Assembly: GCA_047601445.1 (NCBI GenBank)
Contig: JASGJH010000001.1
Location: 2,784,001-2,848,000, forward strand
Source: Myxococcales bacterium
Lineage (GTDB): Bacteria; Myxococcota_A; Polyangia; Polyangiales; DASUME01
Direction: 5' to 3'
Length of the DNA stretch: 64,000 bases
The translations under genes were made by a program, and so were the position numbers. Every line of letters begins with the position of its first letter. Within the stretch, counting starts at the first letter, position 1. The notes beneath the pieces were generated by a model, which was not told the DNA's origin, made no database searches, and saw only the letters and a program-made list of their open reading frames with translations. Shown in pieces: positions 6,133 through 29,872 of the stretch.

Positions 6133-7800
6133 ATGAAAATCGTCTGCGATAGTTGCGGAGCCAAATACTCGATTGCCGATGAAAAAGTCGCCGGCAAGGT
6201 GTTCAAGATTCGCTGCAAGAAGTGCAGTGCGGTGATCGTCGTCAAGGGCGACAACCAAGAAGAGGGCGACGAAGCCACGCGCGTGTACGACTACGGCGCC
6301 GAGGCGGTGTGGCACGTGGTTGTCGGCGGCGACCAGCAAGGTCCGTTGGCTCCGCGCCAGCTGGGCGAGATGCTCGCCGAGGGCAAGATCGACTGGGAAG
6401 CCTACGTGTGGCGCGAAGGCATGGACGGTTGGCAGCCTGCGAAGGACGTGGAGACGCTCGTCAGCGCCATCATGCAGGACGCCGAGGGCGCTCCGAGTCC
6501 CCAGGCGGCGCAGCCGGCCCAGAGCCAGCTGTTCGGCGGCTCGAGCGACATGGGAGCCGATCCCTTCGCCAGCAATGACGATGGTGGTCTCTCTGGCGTG
6601 ATGGGCCAGTCTGCGGCGGCTTCGTCGAGCGGCGGCGGCGGTGGCGGTGACCTTTTCGCACGTTCGGCGCGCAGCCCGTTCGCAGGATCGGTTGACGACG
6701 ATGAGCCGATGTCGAATGGACACCGTGGGAGTCCGCACGTGAGCGAAGCAGAGTCGATGACGGGTCAGCGCAACGAGAACTCGGTGTTGTTCTCGCTTTC
6801 CAACTTGCAGGCACTGGCGACCGGCTCGGGTAGCACGGCGGCCGCTCCGAAGGCCAAGGCAGGAATGGCGCAGGGCGAAGGGTCGGGTCTGATCGACATC
6901 CGCGCCCTCGCGAGCGCCACGCAGGCCGTCTCGAGCACCGCCAGCAATGGCTCGTCTCGCGAGAAGGTCGAAGACCTGATGTCCGTGGGCGCGGCCGGCA
7001 CCGGCTTCTCCGCGGCGGCGTTTGCGGCCCCGGTGGCGGTCGACAAGGGAGACAACAGCAAGCTCCTGCTCGGTGGCATGGCTGGCGCCATCCTGCTGTT
7101 GGGCGCAGCGGTCGGCTACCTCGTCCTGCGTAGCCCCGCACCCGCGGATCCCATGGCGCAGGCCCCCGTGGCGGCCCAACCCGCTCTTGGCGCGGCGCTC
7201 CCCGCTGCTTCGGCAGCGGCCACGGCGCCCACGCCGTCGGCTCCCGTAGCGGAGGCCGCCGCGGCCCCGACTGCCGAAGCCCCCAGCAAGGCCAGCGCGG
7301 ACGAAGAGTCCGACCGCGAAGAAAAGAGCGGCGGAAGCCATCGTTCGAAGCGTGGCAGCAGCGGCAGCAGCGGTGAGAGCACCGCCAGCGCTTCCAAGCC
7401 CGAGAAGGCTTCGGATCCGGCCCCGGCACCTGCCGAGAAGGCGCCTGCGAAGCAGAGCTCGGCCGACTCCTCCATCGACGACCTGCTCAGCGGCGCGCTC
7501 GGCGGCAAGGCCAAGCCCAAGCCGGCCGCTCCCGCCGCCAGTGAGAGCTTGGCGCCCACGCCGAGTCGCGACGAAGTCATGGCCGCGATGAAGTCCGTGA
7601 CGCCCAAGGTCACGGCCTGTGGCGATGGCTCGGGCGGCGTGGCCAAGGCCAAGGTGACGGTCGCTGGCGCTACTGGGCGCGTCACGAGCGTCGAGGTGGA
7701 CGGTCCCGCTCAGTCCTGCGTCACCAAGGAAGTGAGCAAGGCCAAGTTCCCGAAGTTCGCGAACAGCTCGTTCAACTTCACCTATCCCTTCAAGCTCTGA
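6133..7800 (+). CDS. Zinc-ribbon + GYF_2 + TM + TonB-C-like protein (GltJ/AgmX-like family)
   Basis: MKIVCDSCGAKYSIADEK…CKKC zinc ribbon; WHVVVGGDQQGPL…YVWREGMDGW GYF domain; RNENSVLFSL motif; TM helix; C-terminal KAKFPKF…FTYPFKL. Confidence 0.8.
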   Translation: MKIVCDSCGAKYSIADEKVAGKVFKIRCKKCSAVIVVKGDNQEEGDEATRVYDYGAEAVWHVVVGGDQQGPLAPRQLGEMLAEGKIDWEAYVWREGMDGWQPAKDVETLVSAIMQDAEGAPSPQAAQPAQSQLFGGSSDMGADPFASNDDGGLSGVMGQSAAASSSGGGGGGDLFARSARSPFAGSVDDDEPMSNGHRGSPHVSEAESMTGQRNENSVLFSLSNLQALATGSGSTAAAPKAKAGMAQGEGSGLIDIRALASATQAVSSTASNGSSREKVEDLMSVGAAGTGFSAAAFAAPVAVDKGDNSKLLLGGMAGAILLLGAAVGYLVLRSPAPADPMAQAPVAAQPALGAALPAASAAATAPTPSAPVAEAAAAPTAEAPSKASADEESDREEKSGGSHRSKRGSSGSSGESTASASKPEKASDPAPAPAEKAPAKQSSADSSIDDLLSGALGGKAKPKPAAPAASESLAPTPSRDEVMAAMKSVTPKVTACGDGSGGVAKAKVTVAGATGRVTSVEVDGPAQSCVTKEVSKAKFPKFANSSFNFTYPFKL

Positions 7801-13867: not shown

Positions 13868-15430
13868 ATGTCGCCAGCGGGTCTTCGAGAGAGCGTGCAC
13901 CCCGCACTGTTGGCCGGCGTGGGGGGCGGCTTGCTCGCCCTCAGCGGCGAACCCTGGTCGTGGAACCTGCTGGGCTTTCTGAGCCTGGGGCTGTTGCTCG
14001 AGGCCCTGGAGCGCAGCGGACGTCGCGCGCGTCCCGTGCTGACGAGCGGGCTCGTGGGCCTGGCCTTCGGTGCCGTGGTGAACGGCATTGCGCTCTATTC
14101 CATAGGCTCGCTGTTGCAGGCGTTCGGCGGGTTCTCTCCGCTCGTAGCCTGGCCCATCGCCTGCCTGGCGTTTGCGGCCCAGGGCTTGCCCTACGCTGCT
14201 TGCGGCGTCCTCACGACCTACTGCGCGCGGGCCGGCCTCCCCCGCTGGCTTAGCTTTCCTGCTTGCTTGGTGCTCGCGCTGTGGCTGACGCCGCAATTGT
14301 TTCCATGGCGCCCCTCGGCACCGCAGGTGGACTTCCTGTGGTTCGTGCAGATCGCCGACCTCGGAGGTCAGGCGCTGCTCGACCTGTGTATGGCCGCGGT
14401 CGCGAGCGGCACCTGGCAGGCCCTGCGCTCGCTCAAGCCGCAGCGCGAGGCCGCGTGGGCGCCCGCCATCGTGGCCGGGCTGTCCCTGGCCCTCCCGTGC
14501 GGCTACGGCTACCTCCGCCTCGGCCAGGTGCGAAGCGCGCGCAACGACGCGCAGGCCGTGCGCGTGGGCGTGGTGCAGAGCAACGTGGGCATTCAGCTCA
14601 AGCATGATCCCGCGCGCTCGCTGGAGATCCTGGCGGACCTGAAGCGCCTCACGGGCAAGCTCGAGCGTCAGGGCAGCCAGCTCACGGTGTGGGCGGAGAC
14701 GGCCTACCCTTACGCGCTCCTGCGCTCGCGTGGCGCGCAGCCGGACGACGAGCGCACCATCGTGGACGCGAGCGTACGTGGGCCCGTGTTGATCGGCGCC
14801 GTGACCTACAGCGAGCGGGGCGGGGTGCAGAGCAAATACAACACCGCCTGGCTCTTGCGCGAAAACGGGCGCTTCGGCGATCGCGTCGACAAGTCACGCC
14901 TGTTGGCGTTCGGCGAGTACGTGCCGTTCTGGAGCTACCTGCCGCCGTTGCAGGAGAAGTATCCGTCGCCCGGCTTCGAGGCGGGCGAGAACGACGTGAT
15001 TCGCGTGCATCCGGCGGGCAGCGCGGGCAGCCTCCGCTTCGGAATTTTGATCTGCTACGAGGACCTGTTCGCCGACCTGGCCCGCAAGGTCGTCGAGCGG
15101 CGCGCCGACGTGCTGTTGAACATGACCAACGACGCGTGGTTCGGCGATAGCAACGAGCCCGCGCTGCACGACATGGTGGCGCGGTTGCGGGCCGTGGAGA
15201 CCCGACGCGACCTGGTGCGCGTGGTCAACACCGGGGTTTCGAGCGTCTCGAGCGCGACCGGAGAGCTGCTACTGCGCACCCGAACGTTCACCCAGGCGAG
15301 CTTCGTGGCCGACGTGCGGATCATGTCCGAGATCACGCCGTACACGTGCTGGGGCGACTGGCTACCGCCGCTGCTGGCGTGTGTTTTGGCGGCGGCGCTC
15401 GTGCGCCGCAGGCTCAGGAGAGCACCCTGA
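13868..15430 (+). CDS. lnt: Apolipoprotein N-acyltransferase
   Basis: WAETAYP, K.RLLAFGEYVP, ICYED, NMTNDAWFG and RAVETRR..VRVVNTGVS motifs. Confidence 0.95.
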   Translation: MSPAGLRESVHPALLAGVGGGLLALSGEPWSWNLLGFLSLGLLLEALERSGRRARPVLTSGLVGLAFGAVVNGIALYSIGSLLQAFGGFSPLVAWPIACLAFAAQGLPYAACGVLTTYCARAGLPRWLSFPACLVLALWLTPQLFPWRPSAPQVDFLWFVQIADLGGQALLDLCMAAVASGTWQALRSLKPQREAAWAPAIVAGLSLALPCGYGYLRLGQVRSARNDAQAVRVGVVQSNVGIQLKHDPARSLEILADLKRLTGKLERQGSQLTVWAETAYPYALLRSRGAQPDDERTIVDASVRGPVLIGAVTYSERGGVQSKYNTAWLLRENGRFGDRVDKSRLLAFGEYVPFWSYLPPLQEKYPSPGFEAGENDVIRVHPAGSAGSLRFGILICYEDLFADLARKVVERRADVLLNMTNDAWFGDSNEPALHDMVARLRAVETRRDLVRVVNTGVSSVSSATGELLLRTRTFTQASFVADVRIMSEITPYTCWGDWLPPLLACVLAAALVRRRLRRAP

Positions 15431-16709
15431 GCGAACGCTTGTGAGCGTCGGGGCTCCACTCGTAGTGGAAGCGTGGGTCGTTCAAGAGATCTTGGTAGCT
15501 GCCGAAGACGGCGCGCGAATCGTGCACCGTGTCGAGCGGTTCGCGCTCGTCGATCGCACCGGGATTGGCGTCGAAGGTTCGGAGCACCTGGTAGCGTGTG
15601 CTGCGCTCCCCGGGCACGCGCCCGCTGTCGCGGATCAAGCGACGTAGGGTCCGCGGCGCGACCAACTGGCCGTGTTGAGCCCCCGCAGCGGTGGAAATGC
15701 TCTCGTTCATCAGGGTGCCGCCGAGGTCGTTGACCCCCGACGACAACAAGCTCTGAGCCGTGCGCAGCCCTTCCTTGACCCACGAAGCCTGGATGTTCTT
15801 GAAGGTCGCCCCGAGCATCAAGCGCGCCGTGGCGTACAGGCGCACGATGGCGTCGCCCGTGGGGCCCGCCGAGACCGCTCCATCCTGGTCTTCCAGGAAC
15901 AACGGGGCCTCCGCGTGCACGAAGGACAGCGGCACGAACTCCGTGAACCCGCCGCTGCGCTTCTGCAGGTCGCGCAGCAACGCCAGGTGAGCCACGCGAT
16001 CGCGCGCGGTCTCCACGTGCCCGAACATCATGGTGGACGTGGTCGGGATCCCGAGCTCGTGGGCGGTGGTGATCACGTCGATCCACTGCTGCGTGGAGAT
16101 CCGCCCGGGCGCGATGCGCGCGCGGATGCCGTCGTCCAGGATCTCGGCGGACGTGCCAGGCAAAGACCCGAGACCGGCCTCCTTGAGCTCGAGCAAGAAC
16201 TCCCGCACCGGCACCCGCGAGAGAGCGGCGCCGTACTTGATCTCCTCTGGCGAGAACGCATGGATATGGAGCTCGGGCAGGGCTCGCTTCACAGCGCGAA
16301 CGATCTCGACGTAGAGACGTCCCTGAGCCTCCGGCAACAAGCCGGCCTGGAGACAGACCTCCGTCGCCCCGAAGTCCCGCGCCTGTTGCGCGCGCCGCAC
16401 CACTTCCTCGGTGCTCAAGAGGTAGCCCTGTTCGCTGCGCAGATCGCGCGAGAACGCGCAGAACTTGCAGGCCTTCACGCAGACGTTGGTGAAGTTGATG
16501 TTGCGATTGACGACGTAGGTCACCACGTCCCCGACTTGCCGCGTGCGCAGCTCGTCGGCCACGGCGCCGAGCGCCAGGAGATCGCGCCCGCGGGCCGCAT
16601 CGAGCTCGAGCGCCGATTCCACGTCGAGCTCGCGCCCTTCCAGGCACGCCTCGAGCACCGCGCGCACGCGCGCAGATACCGGGCGGAGCAATCCTTCCAG
16701 CGCCGTCAT
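15414..16709 (-). CDS. cofH: FO synthase subunit CofH (radical SAM)
   Basis: YVVNRNINFTNVCVKACKFCAF, PGTSAEIL, NIQASWVK and NDLGGTLMNESISTAAGA motifs; coupled to cofG. Confidence 0.93.
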   Translation of the reverse strand: MTALEGLLRPVSARVRAVLEACLEGRELDVESALELDAARGRDLLALGAVADELRTRQVGDVVTYVVNRNINFTNVCVKACKFCAFSRDLRSEQGYLLSTEEVVRRAQQARDFGATEVCLQAGLLPEAQGRLYVEIVRAVKRALPELHIHAFSPEEIKYGAALSRVPVREFLLELKEAGLGSLPGTSAEILDDGIRARIAPGRISTQQWIDVITTAHELGIPTTSTMMFGHVETARDRVAHLALLRDLQKRSGGFTEFVPLSFVHAEAPLFLEDQDGAVSAGPTGDAIVRLYATARLMLGATFKNIQASWVKEGLRTAQSLLSSGVNDLGGTLMNESISTAAGAQHGQLVAPRTLRRLIRDSGRVPGERSTRYQVLRTFDANPGAIDEREPLDTVHDSRAVFGSYQDLLNDPRFHYEWSPDAHKRSLRVLS

Positions 16710-17995
16710 GGGGAAGCTCTCCCTGCTGGCTCGACCTCCGAGTTGGTGAGCCCCGGGCCCGCATCGCTCGCGAGGATCGGCAGCAGCCGCTCTCCTTGCT
16801 CCGGGGCCAGACGGTCCGCCCGCGTCACGCGCGCTAGGCGCTGACGCTCCCGCTCCAGGGTGTCGCGCAGGCGAGCGTCCACGAAGGCCTCGTCGGCGGC
16901 GAAGCGCGGGTAGATGGGCAAGCGCGGCGCAAGCGAGAATCCAAGCGCACCGCACTGCTCCGCAAGGCGCGCGAGGTGCGGCCAGGGATGGCCCGGGTTG
17001 ATGTAGTCCGGCGTGACGGGAGAGATGCCCCCGAAGTCGTTGATGCCCGCCTGGATCAGGAGCTCTGTGGCGTGGGGATTGAGGTTCGGCGGGGCTTGCA
17101 CGCTGACCTCGTCGGGCAGGATCAAGCGCGCCAAGGCCACCGCGTGGGCGATTTCGAGATCTTCGGGCTCGGGTGCGCTCGCCATCGGGGTCTCGGGCTT
17201 GGTGCGGAAGTTCTGCACGATGACTTCCTGGATGTGACCGTGCTCCGCGTGCAGCGCCCGGATGGCGAGCAGGCTCTGCACACGCTCGAGGCGCGTCTCC
17301 CCGATGCCGAGCAGGATGCCGCTGGTGAACGGAATCTTGAGCTCACCAGCCTCGCGCGTCATGCGCACGCGCAGCTCGGGTCGCTTGTCGCGAGCGCGGT
17401 GGTGGGGCATTCCCTTCTCGCAGAGGCGTGGGCTGATGTTCTCGAGCATCAAGCCGAAGCTCACGTTCAGCGGACGCAGACGCGACAGCTCGTCGCGGGT
17501 CAAGAGTCCCGCGTTCGTGTGCGGCAAGAGGTCGAGCGCGAGCGCCTGCTCCGCGGCCCAGGCCAGATAGTCCACCGTCGAGACGCAACCGAACTCGGCC
17601 AGCTCGCTGCGATAGCTCGGGAACACGCTCTCGGGTCGATCGCCGAGGCAGAACAGGGCCTCGCAAGCGCCGGCCTGTCGACCTCGATCGAGCCACTCAC
17701 GGACCTCGTGTGGGCGCATGGTCCAGGCTCCGGGATCGCCGGGTGAGCGTCGAAAGGAGCAGTAGTCGCAGACGTCGCGACAGAGGTTCGTGAGGGGCAG
17801 GAAGACCTTGGGCGAGAAGGTCAGCTGCGTACCGTAGGCGCGATTGCGGCGCGTCGCGGCGGCTTCGCACAGCGCCGGCAAGTCGGCGTGCGTGAGCTCG
17901 GCCAGCGCGAGCGCGTCTTGCTCGAGCAACAAGCCATCGAGAGCTCGCGTCAGCACCGCGGAGAGACTGCTCGGCATCGACGACGACGTTGCCAT
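16706..17995 (-). CDS. cofG: FO synthase subunit CofG (radical SAM)
   Basis: TFSPKVFLPLTNLCRDVCDYC, GACEALF, LLPHTNAG, QAPPNL and GGISPVTPDYINP..PWP motifs. Confidence 0.93.
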   Translation of the reverse strand: MATSSSMPSSLSAVLTRALDGLLLEQDALALAELTHADLPALCEAAATRRNRAYGTQLTFSPKVFLPLTNLCRDVCDYCSFRRSPGDPGAWTMRPHEVREWLDRGRQAGACEALFCLGDRPESVFPSYRSELAEFGCVSTVDYLAWAAEQALALDLLPHTNAGLLTRDELSRLRPLNVSFGLMLENISPRLCEKGMPHHRARDKRPELRVRMTREAGELKIPFTSGILLGIGETRLERVQSLLAIRALHAEHGHIQEVIVQNFRTKPETPMASAPEPEDLEIAHAVALARLILPDEVSVQAPPNLNPHATELLIQAGINDFGGISPVTPDYINPGHPWPHLARLAEQCGALGFSLAPRLPIYPRFAADEAFVDARLRDTLERERQRLARVTRADRLAPEQGERLLPILASDAGPGLTNSEVEPAGRASP

Positions 17996-18133
17996 GGGCC
18001 CCAGGCCCCGTCCAGCCAGGCTCGGGCGGGCGCGCCACAGGTGCGGTGAGCCATGTTTTGGGGCTCGCCCCCCGAGCCGGACGAGACCCGGTGCGCGGCC
18101 TCTGGAAGCCTGCGGGGCGACCGCCGTTCGGAT

Positions 18134-19390
18134 ATGCTCGCGGCGATGTTCGCGCGACGCGTATGGCTGCTCTCGGCAGGTGTATTGCTCCTGGTCTCGA
18201 GCCTGTTCCTCGCGGCCTCCCAGGTGAATCAGCTCGAACGCCGTGAGCTCGAGCACGAGAGCCCGTGGCGCTCTTTGGCCGCGCTTGAGGGGCAGCCCGG
18301 CTCCACCCGCATCAGCGCGCGCCTCACCGAAGTCACGCTAGACGCGGGAGAGGAGGCCGTCTTCGAGCTGTGCTCACGCGATCAGCTCGCGAAAGAAGCT
18401 TGGGCCGATCGCCTGGACGTGATGGTTTGGCAACCCGATACGCAGCGGCTCGAGCTGAAGATTGCGCTCGACGCGCCCCACCTCGCACTCGGCAAGCGCG
18501 CGCCCGACCGCAGCTGCCTCACCTTGGGCGGCGGGCTCGTGCAGCGCGGCGGCAAGTACGCGGTGGACCTGGTCTGGGCGGGCAAACCTGTGCTCGCGGA
18601 GTCACAGCGAAACGTCCCCCTGAAGGCTCGCGTGCTGGCCAAACGCCCCCTGAACGCCCGCGACGCCTTGCTCGTGCTCGGCGCCGCGCTCGGGGCCCTG
18701 CTCAGCGTACTGGCCGGTTTTGCCAACCCGGAGCCGCGACACGAGAGCGCGCGGCGCGGCCCCATCTGGGCGCTTGCGGCGAGCATTTTGGCGAGCGTGC
18801 TCACCGTGCTGGCCACACGTCTCCCGCTGTCCGGTGCGGTCGGCGGCCTGGTCCGCGGACTCTTGCTGGCAGCCATCCAAGTCGGCATCGCGTGGGCCTT
18901 CGCGCGCCTCATCTACAAGCTCCCACGCGCGGGCCTTTCCCTCTATGCGCCCGAGCGTCACGTGGGCGCCTGGCTGTTCGGTGCCATGGCGGCGGCCCTT
19001 TGTCTGCGCCCCATGGCGCGCCTGGCCCTCGCGCTGATTCCGGCCACCGGCGAAGCGCCCATCGAGGCCTTCATTTCCTGGCCGAGCGGTGCTCTCGCCT
19101 TCGCCGCCCTGGGCATGGTTGTTCCCCTGGCGGAGGAGCTGTTCTTCCGCGGCCTGGTCTACGGTGCACTGGTCCCGCTCGGGCGTACCGCGGCCATCGT
19201 GGTGACGACACTGCTGTTTGCAGCGGTGCACGCACCGCAGACCTGGGGCAACTGGGGCGCCCTGTTGGCCGTCACGGTCACCGGCGCTGTCCTGACCTGC
19301 CTGCGGGCGGTCTCTGGCTCGGCCTTGGTGCCGGCCGTCGCCCACCTCCTGTACAACCTCACACTCTGGAGCGACTCCTTTCGTGGTTGA
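18134..19390 (+). CDS. CPBP (type II CAAX/Abi) intramembrane glutamic protease with N-terminal periplasmic domain
   Basis: PLAEELFFRG, LFAAVH and AVAHLLYN motifs. Confidence 0.88.
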   Translation: MLAAMFARRVWLLSAGVLLLVSSLFLAASQVNQLERRELEHESPWRSLAALEGQPGSTRISARLTEVTLDAGEEAVFELCSRDQLAKEAWADRLDVMVWQPDTQRLELKIALDAPHLALGKRAPDRSCLTLGGGLVQRGGKYAVDLVWAGKPVLAESQRNVPLKARVLAKRPLNARDALLVLGAALGALLSVLAGFANPEPRHESARRGPIWALAASILASVLTVLATRLPLSGAVGGLVRGLLLAAIQVGIAWAFARLIYKLPRAGLSLYAPERHVGAWLFGAMAAALCLRPMARLALALIPATGEAPIEAFISWPSGALAFAALGMVVPLAEELFFRGLVYGALVPLGRTAAIVVTTLLFAAVHAPQTWGNWGALLAVTVTGAVLTCLRAVSGSALVPAVAHLLYNLTLWSDSFRG

Positions 19391-19466
19391 GCTCGCAAGC
19401 GCGGGCCCCGGGCGGTGCGCCTGCGAGGTGCGCGCTTCGGCGGCTCGCACTATGGTGGTCGCGGCC

Positions 19467-20159
19467 ATGTCGCAACGCGGCGTTCTCTCGCATCCCCCCG
19501 TCATCGAGGTCGATCTGCTGGCGGACCACGCGCCTGCGCGGACCGAGGCGAGTTTCCTGTGGGTACGCCATGTCACGCTGCAGAACCGCTACGCGGATGG
19601 GCACCGCAGCAAGGCCTACGAGTACTTCATGGTGGAGCGCACCCTGCTCGACGCGGTCGCCATCGTGCTCTTTCGACGCGACGATGCGGGCGGCGTCGAG
19701 GTCGTGCTGCGCTCGCAGCTGCGGCCACCGCTCGCCTTTCGGCACACCTACGATGTCCCGTTGCTGGCTCCGGGCACGGGCGCAGTGCAGTGGGAAATCC
19801 CGGCAGGCCTGATCGAGCTCGGCGAGCGCGGTGAGGCGGGCCTGTTTCGACGCGCCAGCGCGGAGGTGCTCGAAGAGGTCGGATTCGTATTGCCACCCGA
19901 GCGTTTCTCGATGCTGGGACCCGCCTCCAGCTTGAGTCCTGGACTGTTGGCCGAGAAGCTGCATTTCGTGTGCGCCGAGCTGCGAGCCGGGGACCAACGC
20001 GTCAGCGCAGCTGGCGACGGACATGCCGTGGAGGAGGGATCCGTCAGCGTGTTCGTTCCGCTCGCCGAAGCCGTGGCCGCCGTGGATGCGGGCTTGGTGC
20101 ACGACGTGAAGACCGAAGTAGGCCTCGCGCGCCTGGCGCGTTTGGTCGGAGCTCCGTGA
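19467..20159 (+). CDS. NUDIX hydrolase (ADP-ribose pyrophosphatase-like)
   Basis: WEIPAGLIE…ASAEVLEEVG Nudix box, SPG motif and DVKT. Confidence 0.85.
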   Translation: MSQRGVLSHPPVIEVDLLADHAPARTEASFLWVRHVTLQNRYADGHRSKAYEYFMVERTLLDAVAIVLFRRDDAGGVEVVLRSQLRPPLAFRHTYDVPLLAPGTGAVQWEIPAGLIELGERGEAGLFRRASAEVLEEVGFVLPPERFSMLGPASSLSPGLLAEKLHFVCAELRAGDQRVSAAGDGHAVEEGSVSVFVPLAEAVAAVDAGLVHDVKTEVGLARLARLVGAP

Positions 20160-21133
20160 TGGCGCGCGCCAAGAAAATCGTCCGCCCGAGCCGCCCTCGG
20201 GCCAAGATCGAGAAGTCCCCTCGCGCGCGTCGCAGCGTAAAGAGCGCGCCGCGGGTGTTGGTGATCTACAAGAAGTCGACCTATCAGCTCTGGGTCTCCG
20301 AGCGCAAGAACCCCCACGCGCGGGCGCTGCTCAAGCGCAAGGACCGCTCCGTGGAGCGCATGTTGGCCGCCCACGAAGACCACGTGCACACCATCCAAGC
20401 TGCGCGCGGCATCCTCGACGACCTCGGGGTCGATGCCGTCTTCCGCTACCGGGCCGACGCCGACCGCGCCGAGAATTTCGATCTGGTGATCACGCTCGGC
20501 GGCGATGGCACGCTGCTCTGGGCGTCTCACCTGGTGGGCAAGCAGCCGATGCTTGCCATCAACACGGCTCCCCAGGACAGCATCGGCTACTTCTGCGGCG
20601 GCACCAAGGACACGCTCGAAGAGTCGCTGCGCGCCGCCGTCGAAGGCACCCTGCCCGCCCACCAGCTCACGCGCATGCAAATCGCGCTCGATGGCGACGT
20701 CCTCTCGCGTCGCGTCCTCAACGACGTGCTGTTCTGCCACGAGTGTCCCGCGGCCACGACGCGCTACCTGATCCGCCACGGCCAGCGTGAAGAGGACCAG
20801 CGTTCGAGCGGCGTCTGGGTAGGTCCGGCGGCGGGCTCCACGGCGGCCCAGCGCTCGGCGGGCGGCAAAGTCTTGCCCCTCGACTCCAGCCAAATGCAGT
20901 TCGTGGTGCGCGAACCCTACATGCCCAACGGCACCCGCTACGGCTTGGTGAGGGGTCTCTTGGGGCCCGACGAAGAGCTCCAGATCACCAGCAAGATCCA
21001 CGGGGGTAGGCTGTACGTGGATGGCCCACATCTTCGACGCAAGGTGGACCTCGGCAGCATCATCATGCTGAAGCGCTCTCCCGAACCGCTCACCCTGCTT
21101 GGCTTTCGGGCTCGACGACGCCCTTCGGGGTGA
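20159..21133 (+). CDS. NAD(+)/NADH kinase
   Basis: GGDGTLL, LND and GPAAGSTA..RSAGG motifs; TGATG coupling to the NUDIX gene. Confidence 0.9.
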   Translation: MARAKKIVRPSRPRAKIEKSPRARRSVKSAPRVLVIYKKSTYQLWVSERKNPHARALLKRKDRSVERMLAAHEDHVHTIQAARGILDDLGVDAVFRYRADADRAENFDLVITLGGDGTLLWASHLVGKQPMLAINTAPQDSIGYFCGGTKDTLEESLRAAVEGTLPAHQLTRMQIALDGDVLSRRVLNDVLFCHECPAATTRYLIRHGQREEDQRSSGVWVGPAAGSTAAQRSAGGKVLPLDSSQMQFVVREPYMPNGTRYGLVRGLLGPDEELQITSKIHGGRLYVDGPHLRRKVDLGSIIMLKRSPEPLTLLGFRARRRPSG

Positions 21134-21193
21134 ATCGCGCAGAGCCTGCGCAAGTCGGTAAAGTCTGCTCGGGGGGCGTGCAGTCTTGACCAC

Positions 21194-21327
21194 ACCGTGA
21201 AATGAATTTCGCGGTCGGACGTGACGCAGCGTAAGACCTTACTCAGCGCCAACGGGCCATTTCTCCAGAAACAAGCGGTTTTCGAGCTCTAGCGGTGCCT
21301 CACCCCGACTCGGGCATGGAACCTGCT
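21194..21327 (+). promoter_or_regulatory. Putative sigma54 promoter with upstream palindromic activator site
   Basis: GGGCATGGAACCTGCT (GG-N10-GC, 21312-21327); inverted repeat ACCGTGAAAT-GA-ATTTCGCGGT at 21194-21215. Confidence 0.55.
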
Positions 21328-21340
21328 TTGCCGCTGACCC

Positions 21341-22354
21341 ATGCGAATCACGCGCACTCGTCTCCTCATTCTCCTTTCGACGCTCCTGACCATCCTCCCC
21401 ACGACTGCCTGGGCGGCCGACGTCGCCATCTTCCCGGCCGAGACCAGCAACCTCGCCCCCGCAGACAACCTGGCGGTGGGTGAATTGCTTGCCCAGGCCT
21501 ACGCCGGCGTGTCCCGGCAGGCCGTGCTGTCCCCGGTCCGCACCGAGTATGCGGTCGCGCATGCCACTACCTACGAGGGCGCGGCCCAGAGCCTCGGGGT
21601 CACGGAGTACGTTCGGACGAGCACGCTGGCGGTGGGTCGCCTGATCGTCATCACGGCCACTCGCTACACCTCGGACGGCACCTTCGTCTACCAGTCCAAG
21701 ATGACGGCGCACTCCATGGAAGACTTGCCCGCCATCAGCGACCGCATGGCCAAGGCGCTCTGGCATCGCGTGGACGACTCCGAGGTCCGCACCCGCGACA
21801 ACGTGGTGCAGGACGAAGCGCGCGTGAAGCCGCGCGTCGCCAGCGAGAAGGTGTTCGGCTTCAAGACGGGTGTCTACTTCCCCATGGCGCGGGGCGCCAA
21901 GTTCGACACCTCGATCGGTCTGCAGTTCGATATCCGCTTCGAGATGGACCGCTTCTTCCTCGAGTTCGCCGCGGGCTTCATCTTTCCGACCAGCTTCGCC
22001 GATAACACCTGCAGCAGCTACGACGAGAGCGCCGGCTACTGCACCGGCAGCGACCGCAAGCACGGTACCGTGGGCGGCTTCACGGGTGAAATCGGCGCCA
22101 GCTACTTCCTCACCAACGGCAACGCCGCGCCTTACATCGGTATTGGCTTGATTCCGCGCCTCACGGTGGACATCAACAACGACGTCGCGAACATGCTCGC
22201 CTACGCGCAGCTCGGCATCATGTTGCCACGCGATTCTTCGATCCGGTTCTACGGTGACTTCCGCGCGTCGCAGGGCTTGCTCGAGACTCATCTCGAGAAC
22301 GGCGCCGGGGTGCACACCACCGAGCTGACCCTCCACGTGGGCTTCGGCTGGTGA
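21341..22354 (+). CDS. Secreted protein with N-terminal alpha/beta domain and C-terminal outer-membrane beta-barrel
   Basis: Signal peptide ending AWA; alternating beta strands; terminal LHVGFGW beta-signal. Confidence 0.7.
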   Translation: MRITRTRLLILLSTLLTILPTTAWAADVAIFPAETSNLAPADNLAVGELLAQAYAGVSRQAVLSPVRTEYAVAHATTYEGAAQSLGVTEYVRTSTLAVGRLIVITATRYTSDGTFVYQSKMTAHSMEDLPAISDRMAKALWHRVDDSEVRTRDNVVQDEARVKPRVASEKVFGFKTGVYFPMARGAKFDTSIGLQFDIRFEMDRFFLEFAAGFIFPTSFADNTCSSYDESAGYCTGSDRKHGTVGGFTGEIGASYFLTNGNAAPYIGIGLIPRLTVDINNDVANMLAYAQLGIMLPRDSSIRFYGDFRASQGLLETHLENGAGVHTTELTLHVGFGW

Positions 22355-22391
22355 TCGCGCGGGCCTCGGAGCGGACGGCTACCGGGCGCCC

Positions 22392-22979
22392 CTAGAGTCC
22401 CTCGAGGTCCTGCGGTCCATCGACGTCGAAGCACAAGCCTGGCGCGCGCAGCACGCGGACCTCGCAGCCATGGGCCTCGGCCCGCGCGAGGTGCTGCTGA
22501 AAGCTATCGCCGCGACCGAAGCAGCTGGCGAACAAGGTGGGCGGCTTGAGTGCGAGGACGTTGGTGCCGGCCTCGCCGCCGTCCGGTGACACCGCCACCG
22601 GCGCGCTTTTCAGGGCCTCGACGACGGTGCGGATTTCATCCGCCGCCAGGTGCGGCAAATCCGCCATGCAAACCAGGGCAGCCTCGGCACCGAGCGCAGC
22701 CGCGCGCGCGAGACCCGCGTCGATGATTTGCGCGAGTGTGAAGCCGGGAGCATCGCGCAAGACCTGGGCCCCGCGTGCGAGGGCCAGCGCTTCGACTTCG
22801 GGGTCGTCGGTAAGCACGAGCACGTTGGCGAGGGTCGGCACCTGCTGCAGCGTGCTCACGACGTGCTCGAAGAGTCCCCGCGCGAAGGCGGCTCGCACGG
22901 GGTCGCTGAGCACCTCACCCAGGCGCGATTTGGCGCGCTGGAACCCCTTGGCAGGCAGCACCGCCCAGATGGCACTCAC
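22392..22979 (-). CDS. cofC: Phospho-acid guanylyltransferase CofC/FbiD
   Basis: [18 protein letters not shown]…GTN, FG..DSFQQH and DVDGPQDL motifs. Confidence 0.93.
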
Positions 22980-23899
22980 CGGAGCCCCTCCACGAAGGCG
23001 AGTACCTCGCGCGCGAGGCGCAAGCGGTCCGCTTTGCCGCCCATCACGGTGGAGGCGGCGTAGCTCGGGATGGACAGGCCGTGCTCGTCACCATGCTCGA
23101 CCACGATGCCCGACAGCAGCCCTGCGTAGTGCTCCACGATCGCCGCGGGCGACGCCACGCGGTGCGCGAGTCTCGGGATCATCTCGGCCAGTGGGCCCTT
23201 CACTGCGCGGCCACCGACGATCGGTGACACCGTGACGACGAGCTTGTCCTGCAGCGCATCGCGCACGCCTCCGAGGGTCAAGATCGGATCCACCGACACA
23301 TAGGGATTGGAGGGGCCGATCAGCACCAGCTCCGCCTCCGCCAGGGCCGTCAACACCCGCGCGCTCGCCTGGGCCTCACCGCGGAAGCGCACGGAACGCA
23401 CGCTGGGCGCGCGATGCTCCACGAGCCAGCGCTGAAAGGGCAGCTCTCCGTGCTCGAGCGTGTCGATCCAGGTGGGTCTGGGGGCGTCGCACATCGGGAG
23501 CACACGCGGCTTCACGCCATGGAGCTCGAACAAGCGCGCGGTCACCGAGCTCAAAGACTCCCCCGCCGCCAATGCCTGCGTTCTCAGGAGGTGCGTGGCC
23601 AGGTCGCGATCGCCGAGCCCAAACCAGGCGTCGGCACCCAGCTCGCGCATGCGTTCGAGGGTACGGAAGGATTCGTCGCGCAGGCCCCAGCCGCGGGCTT
23701 CGTCGGCCACGTCGGCCAACGTGTACATCACGGTGTCGAGATCCGGGCAGATCGTGAGGCCCCAGTGGGTGAAGTCATCGCCAGTGTTGACCACGACCGT
23801 GAGCGATTCCGGGGCCAGCGCCTGGGCGACCCCGTGCAACAGGCGGGCGCCACCCACGCCTCCCGAGAGAAACACGACGCGATGAAATGGCGCGCTCAT
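22976..23899 (-). CDS. cofD: LPPG/EPPG:FO transferase CofD/FbiA
   Basis: [46 protein letters not shown] and VKGPLA motifs. Confidence 0.95.
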
Positions 23900-24708
23900 G
23901 CGTACAAATCCTGCTTGGGCGTGCGCAACAGCTCGCTGGCACGCGACTCGACCGCATGAAAGGAGAGGCCCCGCACCAGCACCACCGGCCTCGCTTCATC
24001 GGCCTGGCCGGCCACCAAGTCGGCCGCAGCAGCCACCTGGTCCGCGAGCGCGGTGAGCGTGGACTCGAGCTTGCGACCATCGAGATCGGCGCGTCCGATT
24101 TGGTTGTGAAGGGCTGGCAAGCCGGAGACGCCGAGCGCGATGCCCACCGTGCCCTGACGAAAGGGGCGACCATGCGAATCGCTGACCACCACTCCGAGCG
24201 ACACGTCGTAGCGACGCTCGAGGGCCTCGCGGGTGCGTTGTGCGCAGCGATCTGGGTCCTCGGGCAACAGCAGCGCCCAGGGGCCCTCGCCCGTATGGGA
24301 GCTCTGCGGAGGTAGCGCGTTGCTGAGGTCGATGCCCGCGTTGGCCGACACGAAGCCGAGTCGATGGCGCACGATGATCACGTTGGGCGCGGTACGCGAG
24401 ACCTCGGTGCTCTCACGCAAGATGAGCTGCACCAAACGGGCATCCTTGCCCACCTCGCGCGCGAGCTGTTCGGCCTGAATGTCCGGCTCGATGGTCGACA
24501 CGTCCACGAAGCGACCTTCGGCGCGCGAGAACAGCTTGGACGTCACCACCAGCACATCGCCCTGCTGCAGCGAGATCTCCGCGCGCTCGAGCGCCGCCAT
24601 GATCAGTCCCGGCACGTCGTCGCCCGGCGCGACGCGCGGAATACCCGAAAGCGCGGTAAGCGTCAGGCTGCTGGCGCAGCTCACGGCAGGCTGTTGGGCC
24701 TGGCTCAC
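23896..24708 (-). CDS. cofE: Coenzyme F420-0:L-glutamate ligase CofE (no C-terminal nitroreductase domain)
   Basis: [38 protein letters not shown] and [12 protein letters not shown] motifs; 270 aa. Confidence 0.95.
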
Positions 24709-25361
24709 GATTGCCCGGGCAGTCCGATGATGCGGATGCCGGCCCCGTCGCTATGGTAACGCTTGTTCAGATACAAGAGCACCGGCGTCAGGCTCTCGAG
24801 GGCCACGGCGTTACGCAGGGGACCCGCGTCATAGGCGCGCAAGCCGAGATCCGACACCAAAGCGATGGTGACGTCTTTGCTGGGTAGATCGTCTCCGCAT
24901 ACCAAAACGTCACAAGCGAACTCATGCGAGTGGTCTCCCAGGTGCGACGAGCTGACGTGATGCAGAGTGGCCACCAACCGCACCTCGCCTCCCAGGATTT
25001 CCGCGGCCTCTTGGGCCGCAGAGACACCCTTGGGCAGATGAACCTCGCGCACCTTGGGCGGAGCCAGGGGCACGGTGATGTCGATCACCAGCTTGCCCAC
25101 CAGGTCGGCCTTGAGCTCGCGGAGGGTGTCGGCGTGGGCTCCGTAGGGCACGCACAGCACCACCACATCGGCGTCCTGCACGATGGATTGGTTGTCGCCA
25201 CCTGTGATGACGACGCCGGCGGTCTGCGAGAGCTCCTTGGCCTTTTCGACGGCGCGCGCAGCATCGCGGGAACCCACGGAGACCACGTGCCCTGCCTTGG
25301 CCCAACGCACGCTCAGGCCCGTTCCTTCCCGCCCAGTTCCACCGACCAACCCGAGTTTCAT
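24705..25361 (-). CDS. npdG: NADPH-dependent F420 reductase (Fno/NpdG)
   Basis: [33 protein letters not shown] and [14 protein letters not shown] motifs; first gene of the cofEDC operon. Confidence 0.93.
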
Positions 25362-25492
25362 GGGTGCACTTTCTTCCGCAAATTTCGCCCACCTAGGTGA
25401 GCTATCCGTGTTCTGCTTACGCGACTGAATCGTGAGTGTAGCGCAGCATGTCGCCTTCCGGGTCGCACGCTGCCGAGGGCTCAGGAGAAGGC

Positions 25493-28400
25493 ATGCATAG
25501 TCCAGGTTTCTCGAGGTTTCTCACGGTTTCCCTGCTCGTTCTGGCTAGCCTGCTCGGCGGCACGGCGCGCGCACAGGACCTGCGCAAGCCCGTCCCCAAG
25601 CCCCTCGAACCGTGGGTCCCGTGGGTGCTCGATGACCTGGGCGAGCAGCAGTGTCCGCAGATCGACGACCTGCGCGTGTGCGTGTGGACGACACGGGTCA
25701 CGCTCGACGCCACGGACGCCGGAGCCAGCTTCACGCTCGCGATGACGGTGGACCGCAAGGGCTACGTGGAGCTGCCAGGCTCCCGGGAACGCTGGCCGGA
25801 GGACGTGCGCGTGGACGGCCAGCCGCGAGCCACCCTGCAGAGCAGCGACGGAACCCGACCCATCGTAGAGCTCAGCCCCGGCACCCACAGCATCAGCGGA
25901 CGCTTCGTGTGGAGCAGCCTGCCCGATTCGTTGCAGATGCCAGCCGACCTCGGGAGCCTGGCCCTGCGCGTGAAAGGCACGCCCATCGCCTTTCCCAAGC
26001 GCGAAAAGGATGGCCTCGTGTGGCTAGGCGGTGGCGGCAACGACGCCGCGGAGGAGGAGCGCCTCGAGCTCAGCGTGCACCGCATGATCGAGGACGGCGT
26101 GCCACTCGTGCTTCACACGCGCGTGCGCGTCTCGGCGGGCGGCAAGGCACGGGAGATCGTGCTGCCCAACGTGCTGGTTGCGGGCACGCGGCCCGTGGAG
26201 CTGAGCGCCAACCTGCCGGCGCAGCTGAGCCCCGAGGGCGCGCTGCGCATCCAGGCCCAGGCCGGCGACTACCAGGTGGAGATTCGTGCGGTGGTGCCGA
26301 GTCCCCTCGAGGTGCTCAGCGCTCCGAACGCCGCCGCGCCCTGGCCCGACCATGAAATCTGGGTCTTCCGCGCGGACGATCGACTGCGTCACGTGGAGTT
26401 GAGCGGAGCCCCCCAGGTGGACGCGGCCCGCACCGACCTCGCGCCAGACTGGGCCCATCTGCCCGCCTATTCCGTGGGACCCGGCGTGGGCTTGCGCATC
26501 GAGACCAAGCGACGCGGTGAACCGGAGCCCGCGCCCAACCAGATCCATCTTTCGCGCGCGCTCTGGCTCGACCTCGACGGCGAGGGCTACACGGTGCGCG
26601 ATCACATGAGCGGCGCGATGAACCGCGACTTTCGCGTGGACCTCACTCGGGGCAACCTGGGTCACGCCTTCGTGGACGGGGCCGACCAGGTGATCACCGT
26701 GCACGACAAGAAGAGCGGCGTGGAGATCCGCCAGGGGAACTTCGACCTCAAGGCCGAGTGGCGCATGGACCAGGGTCGCAACGAGCTCGCTGCCGTGGGC
26801 TACGAGCAGGACGTGCACCAGCTCAGCACGGAGCTGAACCTGCCGCCCGGCTTCAAGCTGCTCGGCAGCAGCGGCGTGGACAACCTGCCTGGCACCTGGC
26901 TCGACGAGTGGGACCTGTTCGACTTCTTCTTCGTGCTGTTGCTCTCGTTGGCGGTGGCGAAGATCGCGGGCCGCTTCTTCTTCCCGCTCGCCATCGTGAC
27001 GCTGGTGCTGACGCACAGTGAACCGGAGGCGCCCGCCTTGGCCTGGATCTTCCTGGTCGCGAGCGCAGCCTTGACGCGCGTGGTGCGCGAGGGGCGCTGG
27101 GGCAAGATCGTGCGTGGCACCTTCATCGCGTCCGCGGTGGGTATCCTGCTGGTGATGGTACCCTTCGCCGTCAGCGAGGTGCGGCAGGCCCTGTATCCGC
27201 AGCTCGAGTTCCCCTACACGGGCCCCTCGAGCTACTCGACGCCGGTGTTCTCCGAGAACGCGCCCGCCGCCCCATCAGGTGCCGAAAGCGCGCCGATGGC
27301 CGAGCCCGCGCCCATGCCCGAAGCGCCGGCCCAGATGGAAGGTGGCGGCGGGCTGCAAGACGTACAGAAAGACGAAGCCCAAGAGGAGCGCTCCGAACTC
27401 AAGACACGCGGCCGCCTGGGGAGCTCCTACGGCTCGGGCTACGGCAAGGCCGCCGGCGCGGCACGCCAACTCAAGCAAGAGATCGATCCGAATCAGGTGG
27501 TGCAGACGGGCCCAGGCGTCCCGGTCTGGCGCTTTCGTACGTACAACTTGAGCTGGTCGGGGCCCGTGGAGCACAGCCAACGGCTCTCGCTCTGGATCCT
27601 GCCCCCGGCGCTGACCCGCATCTGGTCGTTGCTCTCGGTGCTGCTGTCCGCCGCCCTGCTGTTCGTGTTGTTGCGCGCGGCACGCAGCGCGGGCGCGGGG
27701 ACGAGCGCTGGCGGGGGACTCGCGGCCAGCGTGCTCGCGTTGCTCGGCGTGCTCGCCGTACAGCCCGCCCAGGCCCAGGACTTTCCCTCGGCCGAGCTGC
27801 TCAACCAGCTGCGCGAACGCCTCACGGAACCCGCGGAATGCGAGCCGAACTGCCTGGCGGTGTCGACCCTCAAGCTCAAGGTCGAAGCCGGCCGCCTGAC
27901 CCTGCGCGTGCAGGTCAACGCAGGCGCCGCCGCCATCTATCAGGCCCCTGGTCCGCTCGAGAGTTGGTCTCCGGAGCAAGTGAAGGTCGATGGCAAGGAG
28001 GCGCTCGCCATGGTGCGCCTCGACGACGGCTTCTTACACGTGAGAGTCGCGCCCGGTCTGCACGAGGTGGAGTTCACGGGCCCGCTTCCGCGCAGTCAGG
28101 CCCTTACCCTGGCGCTCGGCACGCCGCCGCACCGCGTGGAGACCGAGGCGCGCGGCTATGTGATCGACGGCGTCAACCAGGACGGCCACGCCGAAGGGTC
28201 GATCTCGATTCGCCGCGAGCTCGCGGAGGACGCGCAAGACGAGGAGGGCTCGAGCCAGGCACTCGAACCCTGGCTGTCGGTGCGACGCGAGTTCGAGCTC
28301 GGTATCCGCTTCCGTGTGCGCACCGTGATTCAGCGTGTGAGCGCACCGGGCGCGAGCGTGCTGGTGCGCTTGCCGCTGCTCCCCGGCGAGTCGGTCACGG

Positions 28401-29872
28401 AGAGCGGCCTGGTGAGCGAACAAGGCAGCGTGTCCATCGAGCTGCCGCGCGACCAGAGCCAGGTGACCTTCAGCTCGACTCTGGCGCCAACCTCCGAGCT
28501 GAAGCTGCAGGCTGCCACGCCCAACGGCACTCCCAAGGGCGCCGTGGTGCGGCCCTGGAACGAGACCTGGGTCATCCGCCCGAGCGCGCTCTATCACGTC
28601 AGCTTCGACGGCATCGCGCCGATCACGCGCAAGGGCCCCGATGGGGTGTTCGAGCCCGAGTATCGCCCCTGGCCTGGCGAGACCTTGAGCGTGAAGGCCG
28701 AGAAGCTGGCGGCCGCCGAGGGGACCTCGGTCACCATCGACAGCACCCGCCTCGAGCTTCATCCCGGCTCTCGTATGGAGCAATCCACACTCACGCTTCA
28801 GGTGCGCTCGAGTCACGGCACCAGCGAGCGCATCCGGATCCCCGCCCAGGCCATCCTCACCGGTTGCACGGTGGACGGCGAAGCCCGCAGTACGCGCGTG
28901 AAAGACGGCGCCATCGAGCTGCAGCTGAACCCGGGACAGCACAGCGTGGTGCTTACCTTGCAGCGCCCCGTGGGCATGGACAATAGCTACAGCCCGGGCT
29001 CCGTGAGCCTCACGCGTCCGCTCACCAACATCACGACCTCGGTGAACATCCCGGGAGACCGCTGGCTCCTGTGGGCGAGCGGTCCCAGCTGGGGTCCCGC
29101 GGTGTTGTTCTGGGGCTACTTGGTCGTGGTGGTGCTGGCAGCGCTGGGACTCGGCCGGGTTCCCTTCTCGCCGCTCAAGACGCACGAGTGGGTGCTCCTG
29201 GGCCTCGGGCTCACGCAGGTCGACGTGGGGGTGGTGTTCATCGTGCTGGCTTGGCTGTTCTGCCTGGCCTTCCGAGAGCGCAACCCGCCGCGCGAGCCCC
29301 TGCTCTTCAACGCCAACCAGGTGTTCTTGGGCGTGCTCACCGTGGTCGCGCTGTGCTGCCTGGCCTTCGCAGTGCATCAGGGACTGGTCGTGCAGCCGGA
29401 CATGCAGGTGCAGGGACAGGACAGCACCAACGAGCTGCTCAACTGGTACACCGATCGGTCTGCGGGCACCCTCCCCGAGGTGCGCATCTGGAGCGTGCCG
29501 CTCTGGATCTACAAGGGCCTGATGTTGCTCTGGGCCCTGTGGCTCGCGGCCAGCGTGTTGCGCTGGCTGCGCTGGGGCTGGTCCGCGTTCCGACAGGGCG
29601 GCGGTTGGCAGGCAGGAGCCGGCGGACCGCACGTGTTCAAGCGCAACCCCGAGGCCCCCGAGCCGAGCCCTCCGCCAGCGCCGACGGCCGGCACCAGCGG
29701 CGGCACACCCGTCACGTCCCCTGCGCCCGAGGCCCCTGCAGCGCCCTTGGACGTGCAGCGCGTGCCAGGGCAAAATCCACGCGTGCCACTCGACCAGATC
29801 GAGCGTGCCCAAGCGGAGCTCGATCGCGCGCGGAAGCGCGAGCGCGACCCGGAGAGCGGAGAGGATGCCTGA
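25493..29872 (+). CDS. Large (about 1460 aa) internally duplicated multi-pass membrane protein of unknown function
   Basis: RBS AGGAG, signal peptide, and two homologous extracytoplasmic halves each followed by a TM cluster. Confidence 0.8.
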   Translation: MHSPGFSRFLTVSLLVLASLLGGTARAQDLRKPVPKPLEPWVPWVLDDLGEQQCPQIDDLRVCVWTTRVTLDATDAGASFTLAMTVDRKGYVELPGSRERWPEDVRVDGQPRATLQSSDGTRPIVELSPGTHSISGRFVWSSLPDSLQMPADLGSLALRVKGTPIAFPKREKDGLVWLGGGGNDAAEEERLELSVHRMIEDGVPLVLHTRVRVSAGGKAREIVLPNVLVAGTRPVELSANLPAQLSPEGALRIQAQAGDYQVEIRAVVPSPLEVLSAPNAAAPWPDHEIWVFRADDRLRHVELSGAPQVDAARTDLAPDWAHLPAYSVGPGVGLRIETKRRGEPEPAPNQIHLSRALWLDLDGEGYTVRDHMSGAMNRDFRVDLTRGNLGHAFVDGADQVITVHDKKSGVEIRQGNFDLKAEWRMDQGRNELAAVGYEQDVHQLSTELNLPPGFKLLGSSGVDNLPGTWLDEWDLFDFFFVLLLSLAVAKIAGRFFFPLAIVTLVLTHSEPEAPALAWIFLVASAALTRVVREGRWGKIVRGTFIASAVGILLVMVPFAVSEVRQALYPQLEFPYTGPSSYSTPVFSENAPAAPSGAESAPMAEPAPMPEAPAQMEGGGGLQDVQKDEAQEERSELKTRGRLGSSYGSGYGKAAGAARQLKQEIDPNQVVQTGPGVPVWRFRTYNLSWSGPVEHSQRLSLWILPPALTRIWSLLSVLLSAALLFVLLRAARSAGAGTSAGGGLAASVLALLGVLAVQPAQAQDFPSAELLNQLRERLTEPAECEPNCLAVSTLKLKVEAGRLTLRVQVNAGAAAIYQAPGPLESWSPEQVKVDGKEALAMVRLDDGFLHVRVAPGLHEVEFTGPLPRSQALTLALGTPPHRVETEARGYVIDGVNQDGHAEGSISIRRELAEDAQDEEGSSQALEPWLSVRREFELGIRFRVRTVIQRVSAPGASVLVRLPLLPGESVTESGLVSEQGSVSIELPRDQSQVTFSSTLAPTSELKLQAATPNGTPKGAVVRPWNETWVIRPSALYHVSFDGIAPITRKGPDGVFEPEYRPWPGETLSVKAEKLAAAEGTSVTIDSTRLELHPGSRMEQSTLTLQVRSSHGTSERIRIPAQAILTGCTVDGEARSTRVKDGAIELQLNPGQHSVVLTLQRPVGMDNSYSPGSVSLTRPLTNITTSVNIPGDRWLLWASGPSWGPAVLFWGYLVVVVLAALGLGRVPFSPLKTHEWVLLGLGLTQVDVGVVFIVLAWLFCLAFRERNPPREPLLFNANQVFLGVLTVVALCCLAFAVHQGLVVQPDMQVQGQDSTNELLNWYTDRSAGTLPEVRIWSVPLWIYKGLMLLWALWLAASVLRWLRWGWSAFRQGGGWQAGAGGPHVFKRNPEAPEPSPPPAPTAGTSGGTPVTSPAPEAPAAPLDVQRVPGQNPRVPLDQIERAQAELDRARKRERDPESGEDA

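Follow-up and report, generated by a model that had tools for sequence, protein, structure and literature searches.

The deazaflavin cofactor F420 serves low-potential hydride chemistry in degradation and in the synthesis of natural products; to our knowledge little is understood of what it does in Gram-negative bacteria. In the pathway as described, CofH and CofG build FO, CofC makes a GDP-activated C3 acid that is then transferred by CofD, CofE glutamylates the product and NpdG reduces it with NADPH (PMC8498797). The same source distinguishes three linker routes: 2-phospholactate (2-PL), phosphoenolpyruvate (PEP) followed by reduction by FbiB or FbiE, and 3-phosphoglycerate (3-PG). It gives split CofG/CofH as the archaeal norm and describes Proteobacteria as having the fused FO synthase FbiC. 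Here we analyze a stretch of 64,000 nt from a Myxococcales bacterium (the window; positions 2,784,001 to 2,848,000 of contig JASGJH010000001.1, assembly GCA_047601445.1) which carries the genes cofH, cofG, cofC, cofD, cofE and npdG. Considering the identity and integrity of these genes, the conserved catalytic residues of their products, the predicted users encoded in the genome and the co-occurrence of both in the phylum, we regard the locus with good confidence as a functional system for F420-family biosynthesis that has long resided in a myxobacterium of the Polyangiales.

Gene identity was scored in bits against curated NCBIfam cut-offs, and for the genes lying between the two blocks of the locus also against Pfam. 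The first block encodes the two radical SAM subunits of FO synthase, both with a CxxxCxxC motif: CofH (15414-16709; 431 aa; TIGR03551, 470 vs cut-off 374; motif at residue 77) and CofG (16706-17995; 429 aa; TIGR03550, 412 vs 213). The second block encodes the guanylyltransferase CofC (22392-22979; 195 aa; TIGR03552, 146.5 vs 105), the FO:phospho-acid transferase CofD (22976-23899; 307 aa; TIGR01819, 291 vs 257), the stand-alone gamma-glutamyl ligase CofE (23896-24708; 270 aa; TIGR01916, 239 vs 181) and the NADPH-dependent F420 reductase NpdG, also called Fno (24705-25361; 218 aa; TIGR01915, 181 vs 150). All six genes lie on the minus strand, none of the six open reading frames (ORFs) has an internal stop, and 4-bp ATGA/GTGA overlaps occur at all four within-block junctions, as the original prediction of six minus-strand F420 genes with overlapping starts and stops had it. 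The locus is not a single operon, the blocks being separated by 4396 bp that hold four plus-strand genes. A scan of the locus returned no promoter-like and three terminator-like sites, not above shuffled sequences.

The predicted products retain the residues expected of active enzymes. CofD contains the NTGDD and PDLDT motifs and matches the PDB entries 3C3D (212 bits) and 6UVX (165 bits). The match of CofE to the FbiB model (449 positions) is confined to positions 8-242, the C-terminal reductase domain of FbiB being absent. In CofC the three Mg-binding aspartates (D107, D185, D187) and the substrate-contact residues T139, G155 and S159 are invariant in 94 aligned sequences. Its structure, predicted with alignment input (pLDDT 97.5), would resemble 7P97 (TM 0.89) and 6BWG and 2I5E (0.84-0.85), and by sequence its best PDB match is again the 3-PG enzyme 7P97 (82.5 bits vs 40.9 and 27.1). 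In 43 of 70 aligned rows, every one of them from the window's clade, one more residue separates G155 from S159; a few genomes are present twice in that alignment. A motif match shows the longer loop in 53 of the 56 nearest relatives in the database.

Among the described systems the Alphaproteobacteria Paracoccus alcaliphilus and Leisingera caerulea (on a plasmid) possess the same six genes, with split cofG/cofH, stand-alone cofE and npdG, and no nitroreductase in the region examined. Their clusters include an adjacent F420-dependent luciferase-like monooxygenase (LLM). They differ in forming a single operon (cofG-H-D-C-E-npdG), in lacking the CofC loop insertion and in a CofD that is 36-39% identical to that of the window and belongs to a distant branch. 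Comparable as well are metagenome-assembled genomes (MAGs) of Pseudomonadota (Halieaceae, Azotimanducaceae and others), in which npdG-cofE-cofD-cofC-cofG-cofH corresponds in order and strand to the joined blocks of the window and CofD forms the sister clade to the window's (support 97); there the genes are contiguous, whereas four genes split them here, CofG identity is about 50% and the loop insertion is missing. The split cofG/cofH of these MAGs (15 loci, L072-L102) lies in one operon, as it does, in another order, in Paracoccus and Leisingera; this contrasts with the fused FbiC ascribed to Proteobacteria in PMC8498797. Split genes also occur in a Miltoncostaea record, so that together with the archaeal norm the rarity implied by the original prediction does not hold.

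The actinobacterial fbiABCD and Thermomicrobium FbiE systems, which follow the PEP route, share homologous enzymes, the Gly at the diagnostic position of CofC and the same families of LLM and flavin/deazaflavin oxidoreductases (FDOR), but the window genome has no fused FbiC, FbiB C-terminal domain, stand-alone FbiE or Fgd above cut-off. With the archaeal cofCDEGH system (2-PL) the locus shares split CofG/CofH and stand-alone CofE, and its CofD scores higher against that of M. mazei than against FbiA of M. smegmatis; no known 2-PL source can be pointed to in this genome. The 3-PG system of Mycetohabitans resembles it in the Gram-negative host, in needing no reductase for dehydro-F420 (DF420) and in its CofC (7P97). 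P. rhizoxinica has been reported to lack NpdG and known F420 users, both of which are encoded here (10.1101/670455).

Based on established enzyme chemistry, CofH and CofG would convert tyrosine and the riboflavin precursor 5-amino-6-ribitylamino-uracil into FO, CofC would activate a C3 phospho-acid with GTP, CofD would transfer the activated acid to FO, CofE would add gamma-glutamates and NpdG would reduce the cofactor with NADPH; LLM and FDOR enzymes encoded at scattered sites would then use it. The genome encodes RibD (337 vs cut-off 156). Pfam searches of the genome gave 22 candidate proteins which were scored against cut-offs of F420-dependent families, and nine of them passed as predicted users: three LLMs (TIGR03559, TIGR03841 and TIGR03619), five FDOR-A (TIGR00026; a sixth fell narrowly below, 46.0 vs 46.35) and one FDOR-B (TIGR03666). 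Most of the remaining LLM candidates are FMN types. No DNA photolyase (PF00875) was matched in the 9.5-Mb, 98.7% complete genome. Because of the nine predicted users and the lack of a photolyase match, an F420-type cofactor is very probably both made and used by the host. One NtaA/DmoA-family monooxygenase gene (genome 7438019-7439377) is split over two frames by a frameshift or an assembly error. Of 49 myxobacterial-clade loci, 30 have a close relative of the TIGR03619 LLM as the gene immediately upstream of cofG, and 16 have a close relative of the TIGR03559 LLM immediately upstream of npdG, most of them from one close-knit clade; in this genome the two genes are 93 kb and 1.2 Mb away from the cluster.

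The distribution of the pathway was followed in 301 genomes of the phylum; the counts are descriptive of this sample, related genomes not being independent. CofG above cut-off was found in 92 of them, and CofD (E<=1e-30; 90 above cut-off) in the identical 92. CofC accompanied them in 88 of the 92 and was found in no other genome, and the TIGR03559 LLM (E<=1e-95, all above cut-off) was present in 88 of the 92 carriers vs none of the 209 others. The picture of this organism as an exceptional carrier should therefore be abandoned, many members of the phylum having the trait, while the idea of a deazaflavin cofactor pathway gains support from the intact genes, the predicted users and this co-occurrence. 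Several distant families are entirely cof-positive (9/9, 6/6, 18/18 and 10/10). In their sampled members CofD forms a second clade, the genes run cofD-cofC-cofE and CofC lacks the insertion. These differences hint at two independent acquisitions, which we do not claim; a single phylum clade of CofD was not rejected by the approximately unbiased (AU) test (p = 0.056). In families f23, f26, f30, f31 and f36, uniformly or largely cof-positive, many genomes carry multiple copies of the TIGR03559 LLM (up to six among seven scored, with up to 143 loose candidates), which suggests an expansion of F420 enzymes like that in Actinobacteria.

Gene order varies as well. Outside the myxobacterial clade, 15 of 31 loci have all six genes in one operon, npdG-cofE-cofD-cofC-cofG-cofH; within it, the two blocks are convergent in 20 of the 25 loci which have all six genes. 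The layout in the window is thus one among several rearrangements as judged from these loci. In 18 loci the gene between cofH and cofC looks SDR-like by eye.

Several observations weigh against a functional, long-resident system. The distribution is patchy: CofD is present in 20 of 48 other genomes of the same order vs none of 10 from the remaining orders of the class, which means that the phylum has seen loss or internal transfer of the pathway. Relatedness of the sampled genomes inflates the co-occurrence counts. The assembly has a contamination score of 5.43%, though it is a single contig. The search for users covered Fgd, whose cut-off was passed by none of the 22 candidates scanned, and NADPH would therefore be the sole known route for reduction of the cofactor. 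Finally, no FbiE was found: TIGR03553 scores no higher than 52 bits in this genome, for a BluB-CobT fusion.

The last point concerns the linker, for which none of the three known routes fits this genome cleanly. In a positive control, the nitroreductase of Thermomicrobium roseum encoded beside cofD/cofC scored 163 bits (E 5e-48) with TIGR03553; by position and score it is presumably the published FbiE, and its best match in the window genome was BluB again. Among the 301 genomes, with at most 10 candidates scored in each, TIGR03553 was matched at E<=1e-20 in none of the 92 cof-bearing genomes and in one overall (G089, without cofD). The description of the locus as complete thus stands for the six genes, but if PEP is the precursor of the linker, the pathway requires a seventh activity, a DF420 reductase, and FbiE was not detected. 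The idea of a conserved extra biosynthetic gene beside cof clusters was rejected, as nitroreductase matches were absent from 31 further loci and numbered one, weak and distant, among 80. The BluB-CobT gene itself (genome 8244978-8246699) encodes a fusion with both domains above cut-off. Another nitroreductase (L131; genome 3536564-3537241) was rejected as the common DF420 reductase, as none of the 20 carriers of the same order has a close relative of it. Its close relatives (E<=1e-45) occur in 11 of the 301 genomes, all 11 cof-bearing, and it remains a candidate DF420 reductase for this genome. A further nitroreductase is encoded at genome 7415703-7416311.

Outside Mycetohabitans the cognate bacterial enzyme pairs that were assayed preferred PEP (PMC8764529), and for this reason we lean towards PEP as the linker precursor; the resulting DF420 would be reduced by an unrecognised enzyme other than FbiE or left unreduced. 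Usage of 2-PL, whose forming enzyme has not been identified even in archaea (10.1101/670455), appears unlikely, 3-PG somewhat more so, and some other linker is the least expected. Taken overall, classical F420 is the moderately probable end product.

A variant of this explanation, which does not dispute production of the cofactor, is that the pathway works but ends in something else: unreduced DF420-n, 3PG-F420 made through a different active-site solution, or a product with another linker. We consider it doubtful, although several observations favour it: the lack of TIGR03553 matches in the cof-bearing genomes, the loop insertion in the window's clade and the likeness of CofC to 7P97 in both sequence and fold. 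It has also been argued that usage of 3-PG evolved in settings without 2-PL and a DF420 reductase (PMC8764529). The residues of CofC speak against 3PG-F420. S162 is diagnostic for this product, with contributions from M91, C95 and H145 (Hasan 2022, PMC8764529), and all four residues of the Mycetohabitans enzyme are absent from the window CofC, which has Gly155 (Arg156 in an alternative register), neither Ser nor Thr, in place of S162, and Leu82, Ile86 and Ala137 at the other positions. The adjacent one-residue insertion makes the S162 rule less certain for this CofC. The likeness to 7P97 may only mirror the three CofC structures available, and the FbiE negative covers at most 10 candidates per genome. 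The Paracoccus and Leisingera clusters lack a nitroreductase as well in the regions examined, and P. denitrificans has been reported to make traces of F420 (PMC8498797). In five other loci of the clade (L058, L068, L076, L081 and L151) the residue that follows the invariant Gly in the longer loop of CofC is Ser or Thr. Counting the register back from the carboxylate-binding Ser would place this residue at the S162 position, and these enzymes are possible 3-PG-tolerant candidates.

That only FO is made, for instance as a photolyase antenna, or that the cluster is silent or decaying, is improbable. The division of the six genes into two blocks would fit such a state, but no photolyase was matched, cofC, cofD and cofE are intact, the metal ligands are conserved, and the F420-using families track the pathway across the phylum.

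It is still less probable that the genes belong to a recently acquired island or stem from contamination or faulty assembly, as the contamination score and the presence of F420 clusters on plasmids of other bacteria might suggest. The genome (9.50 Mb, 66% GC, 98.7% complete) is contained in a single contig. Among GTDB genomes, most of the closest relatives of CofG (identity about 61-81%) carry the titles Myxococcales, Polyangiales, Sandaracinaceae, Polyangiaceae or delta proteobacterium; the 80 records among the matches listed are MAGs without exception. Neighbouring genes are 46-95% identical and syntenic in records titled Myxococcales or Polyangiales. In one of them (L026) 13 consecutive genes, including all six of the pathway and the four intervening ones, are kept in identical order, and two others (L027 and L028) keep parts of it, L028 extending to hisG at 93% identity. 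Such synteny in independent assemblies largely refutes an island, a contaminant or an artefact. MYXO-CTERM matches above cut-off number six in this genome vs none in 14 control genomes. On these sequence grounds the host is a member of Myxococcota, order Polyangiales, and the myxobacterial origin that had been proposed for the contig is borne out.

The composition of the genes is typical of the genome, as had been claimed from codon style: among 4819 crudely called long ORFs the six genes lie at the 26-64 percentiles of the codon adaptation index (CAI) and the 22-81 percentiles of GC3, and GC is flat. In a quick tree of 109 rows CofG falls in a clade of 65 (SH-aLRT 100) made up mostly of Myxococcota-titled or same-phylum rows, with few other or vague titles. 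In a tree of 62 rows (26 near-duplicates removed) CofD joins genomes of the same genus (91) within a clade of 25 rows (97). The genus has nine other genomes, all fragmented assemblies, and CofC was above cut-off in five of them. Placement of CofG and CofD in Myxococcota clades is consistent with long residence, and in this the trees side with the original prediction.

The notion that the CofH-like gene is in fact the futalosine enzyme MqnC or MqnE and the cluster misannotated can practically be dismissed: the protein does score on both models (TIGR03699, 347 < 428; TIGR03700, 327 < 435), and the MqnC cut-off is passed by no gene genome-wide, but it exceeds the CofH cut-off and its gene overlaps cofG, while a true MqnE (genome contig 640359-641402; 486.7 > 434.55) and an MqnC-like paralog, likely MqnC (genome 3031348-3032343; 287 bits, below the cut-off of 428), are encoded elsewhere.

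The four plus-strand genes between the blocks begin with a CPBP/Rce1-like intramembrane protease outside the pathway (18053-19390, start uncertain; PF02517) and a NUDIX-like hydrolase (19383-20159, start uncertain) with weak TIGR00052 and PF00293 matches, both below cut-off. The third (20159-21133) encodes a divergent NAD kinase, probably the housekeeping copy, as the sole PF01513 match of the genome; Atlas places it with NAD-kinase clusters at 0.96. It is highly divergent, with 49 bits vs cut-offs >200 and about 33-35 bits with PF01513. A role as lactate kinase was considered and rejected, as the gene is the only PF01513 match, resembles NAD kinases and stands beside cof in three of 80 loci. 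The fourth gene (21341-22354) encodes a protein of 337 aa with no Pfam or NCBIfam match, whose counterparts in L026 and L028 are 78% and 69% identical. Divergent from npdG, on the plus strand (25448-29872), lies a gene for a membrane protein of 1474 aa with no Pfam or NCBIfam match; it is syntenic in L026 (63%), and Atlas shows widespread unnamed clusters at 0.98. Farther away, 6133-7800 and 34081-35973 (plus strand) gave partial matches below cut-off to the myxobacterial GltJ and TraB models.

We found no report of F420 synthesis in Myxococcota in the literature covered, outside which the key surveys of F420 distribution lie. The main text of PMC8498797 contains no Myxococc-, myxobact- or Deltaproteobacteria term, although its Table 4 and supplements may list the lineage, and the supplements of PMC8764529 have no Myxococc-, myxobact- or Deltaproteobacteria entry. 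A gene for an F420-dependent NADP reductase in a lanthipeptide cluster is described in PMC11876861 as unreported in myxobacterial secondary metabolism. Many close relatives of CofC are already named in public databases, so that these genes have annotations even where no paper discusses them. The pathway as such belongs to textbook knowledge and is annotated automatically; as judged from the genomes sampled, the phylum is a common carrier of it.

What raises the locus above routine is the breadth of the trait in Myxococcota together with a testable gap at the linker step. If about 30% of the sampled Myxococcota make F420, the whole phylum joins the producers, with LLM and FDOR enzymes of its own. 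We put forward tentatively that many Myxococcota, for the most part uncultured, produce a deazaflavin cofactor through an undescribed route, without FbiE or the 3-PG serine; the loop insertion in CofC of the clade would then mark a different linker, or reliance on a novel DF420 reductase or 2-PL source. A different linker could mean DF420 as the working cofactor, a second solution leading to 3PG-F420, or a phospho-acid not seen before. All six genes are short enough to be expressed, and how bacteria without FbiE finish the cofactor is directly testable with this CofC/CofD pair. If the undescribed route is true, these bacteria would be candidates for the unidentified environmental producers of 3PG-F420, or would give a handle on the missing 2-PL enzyme.

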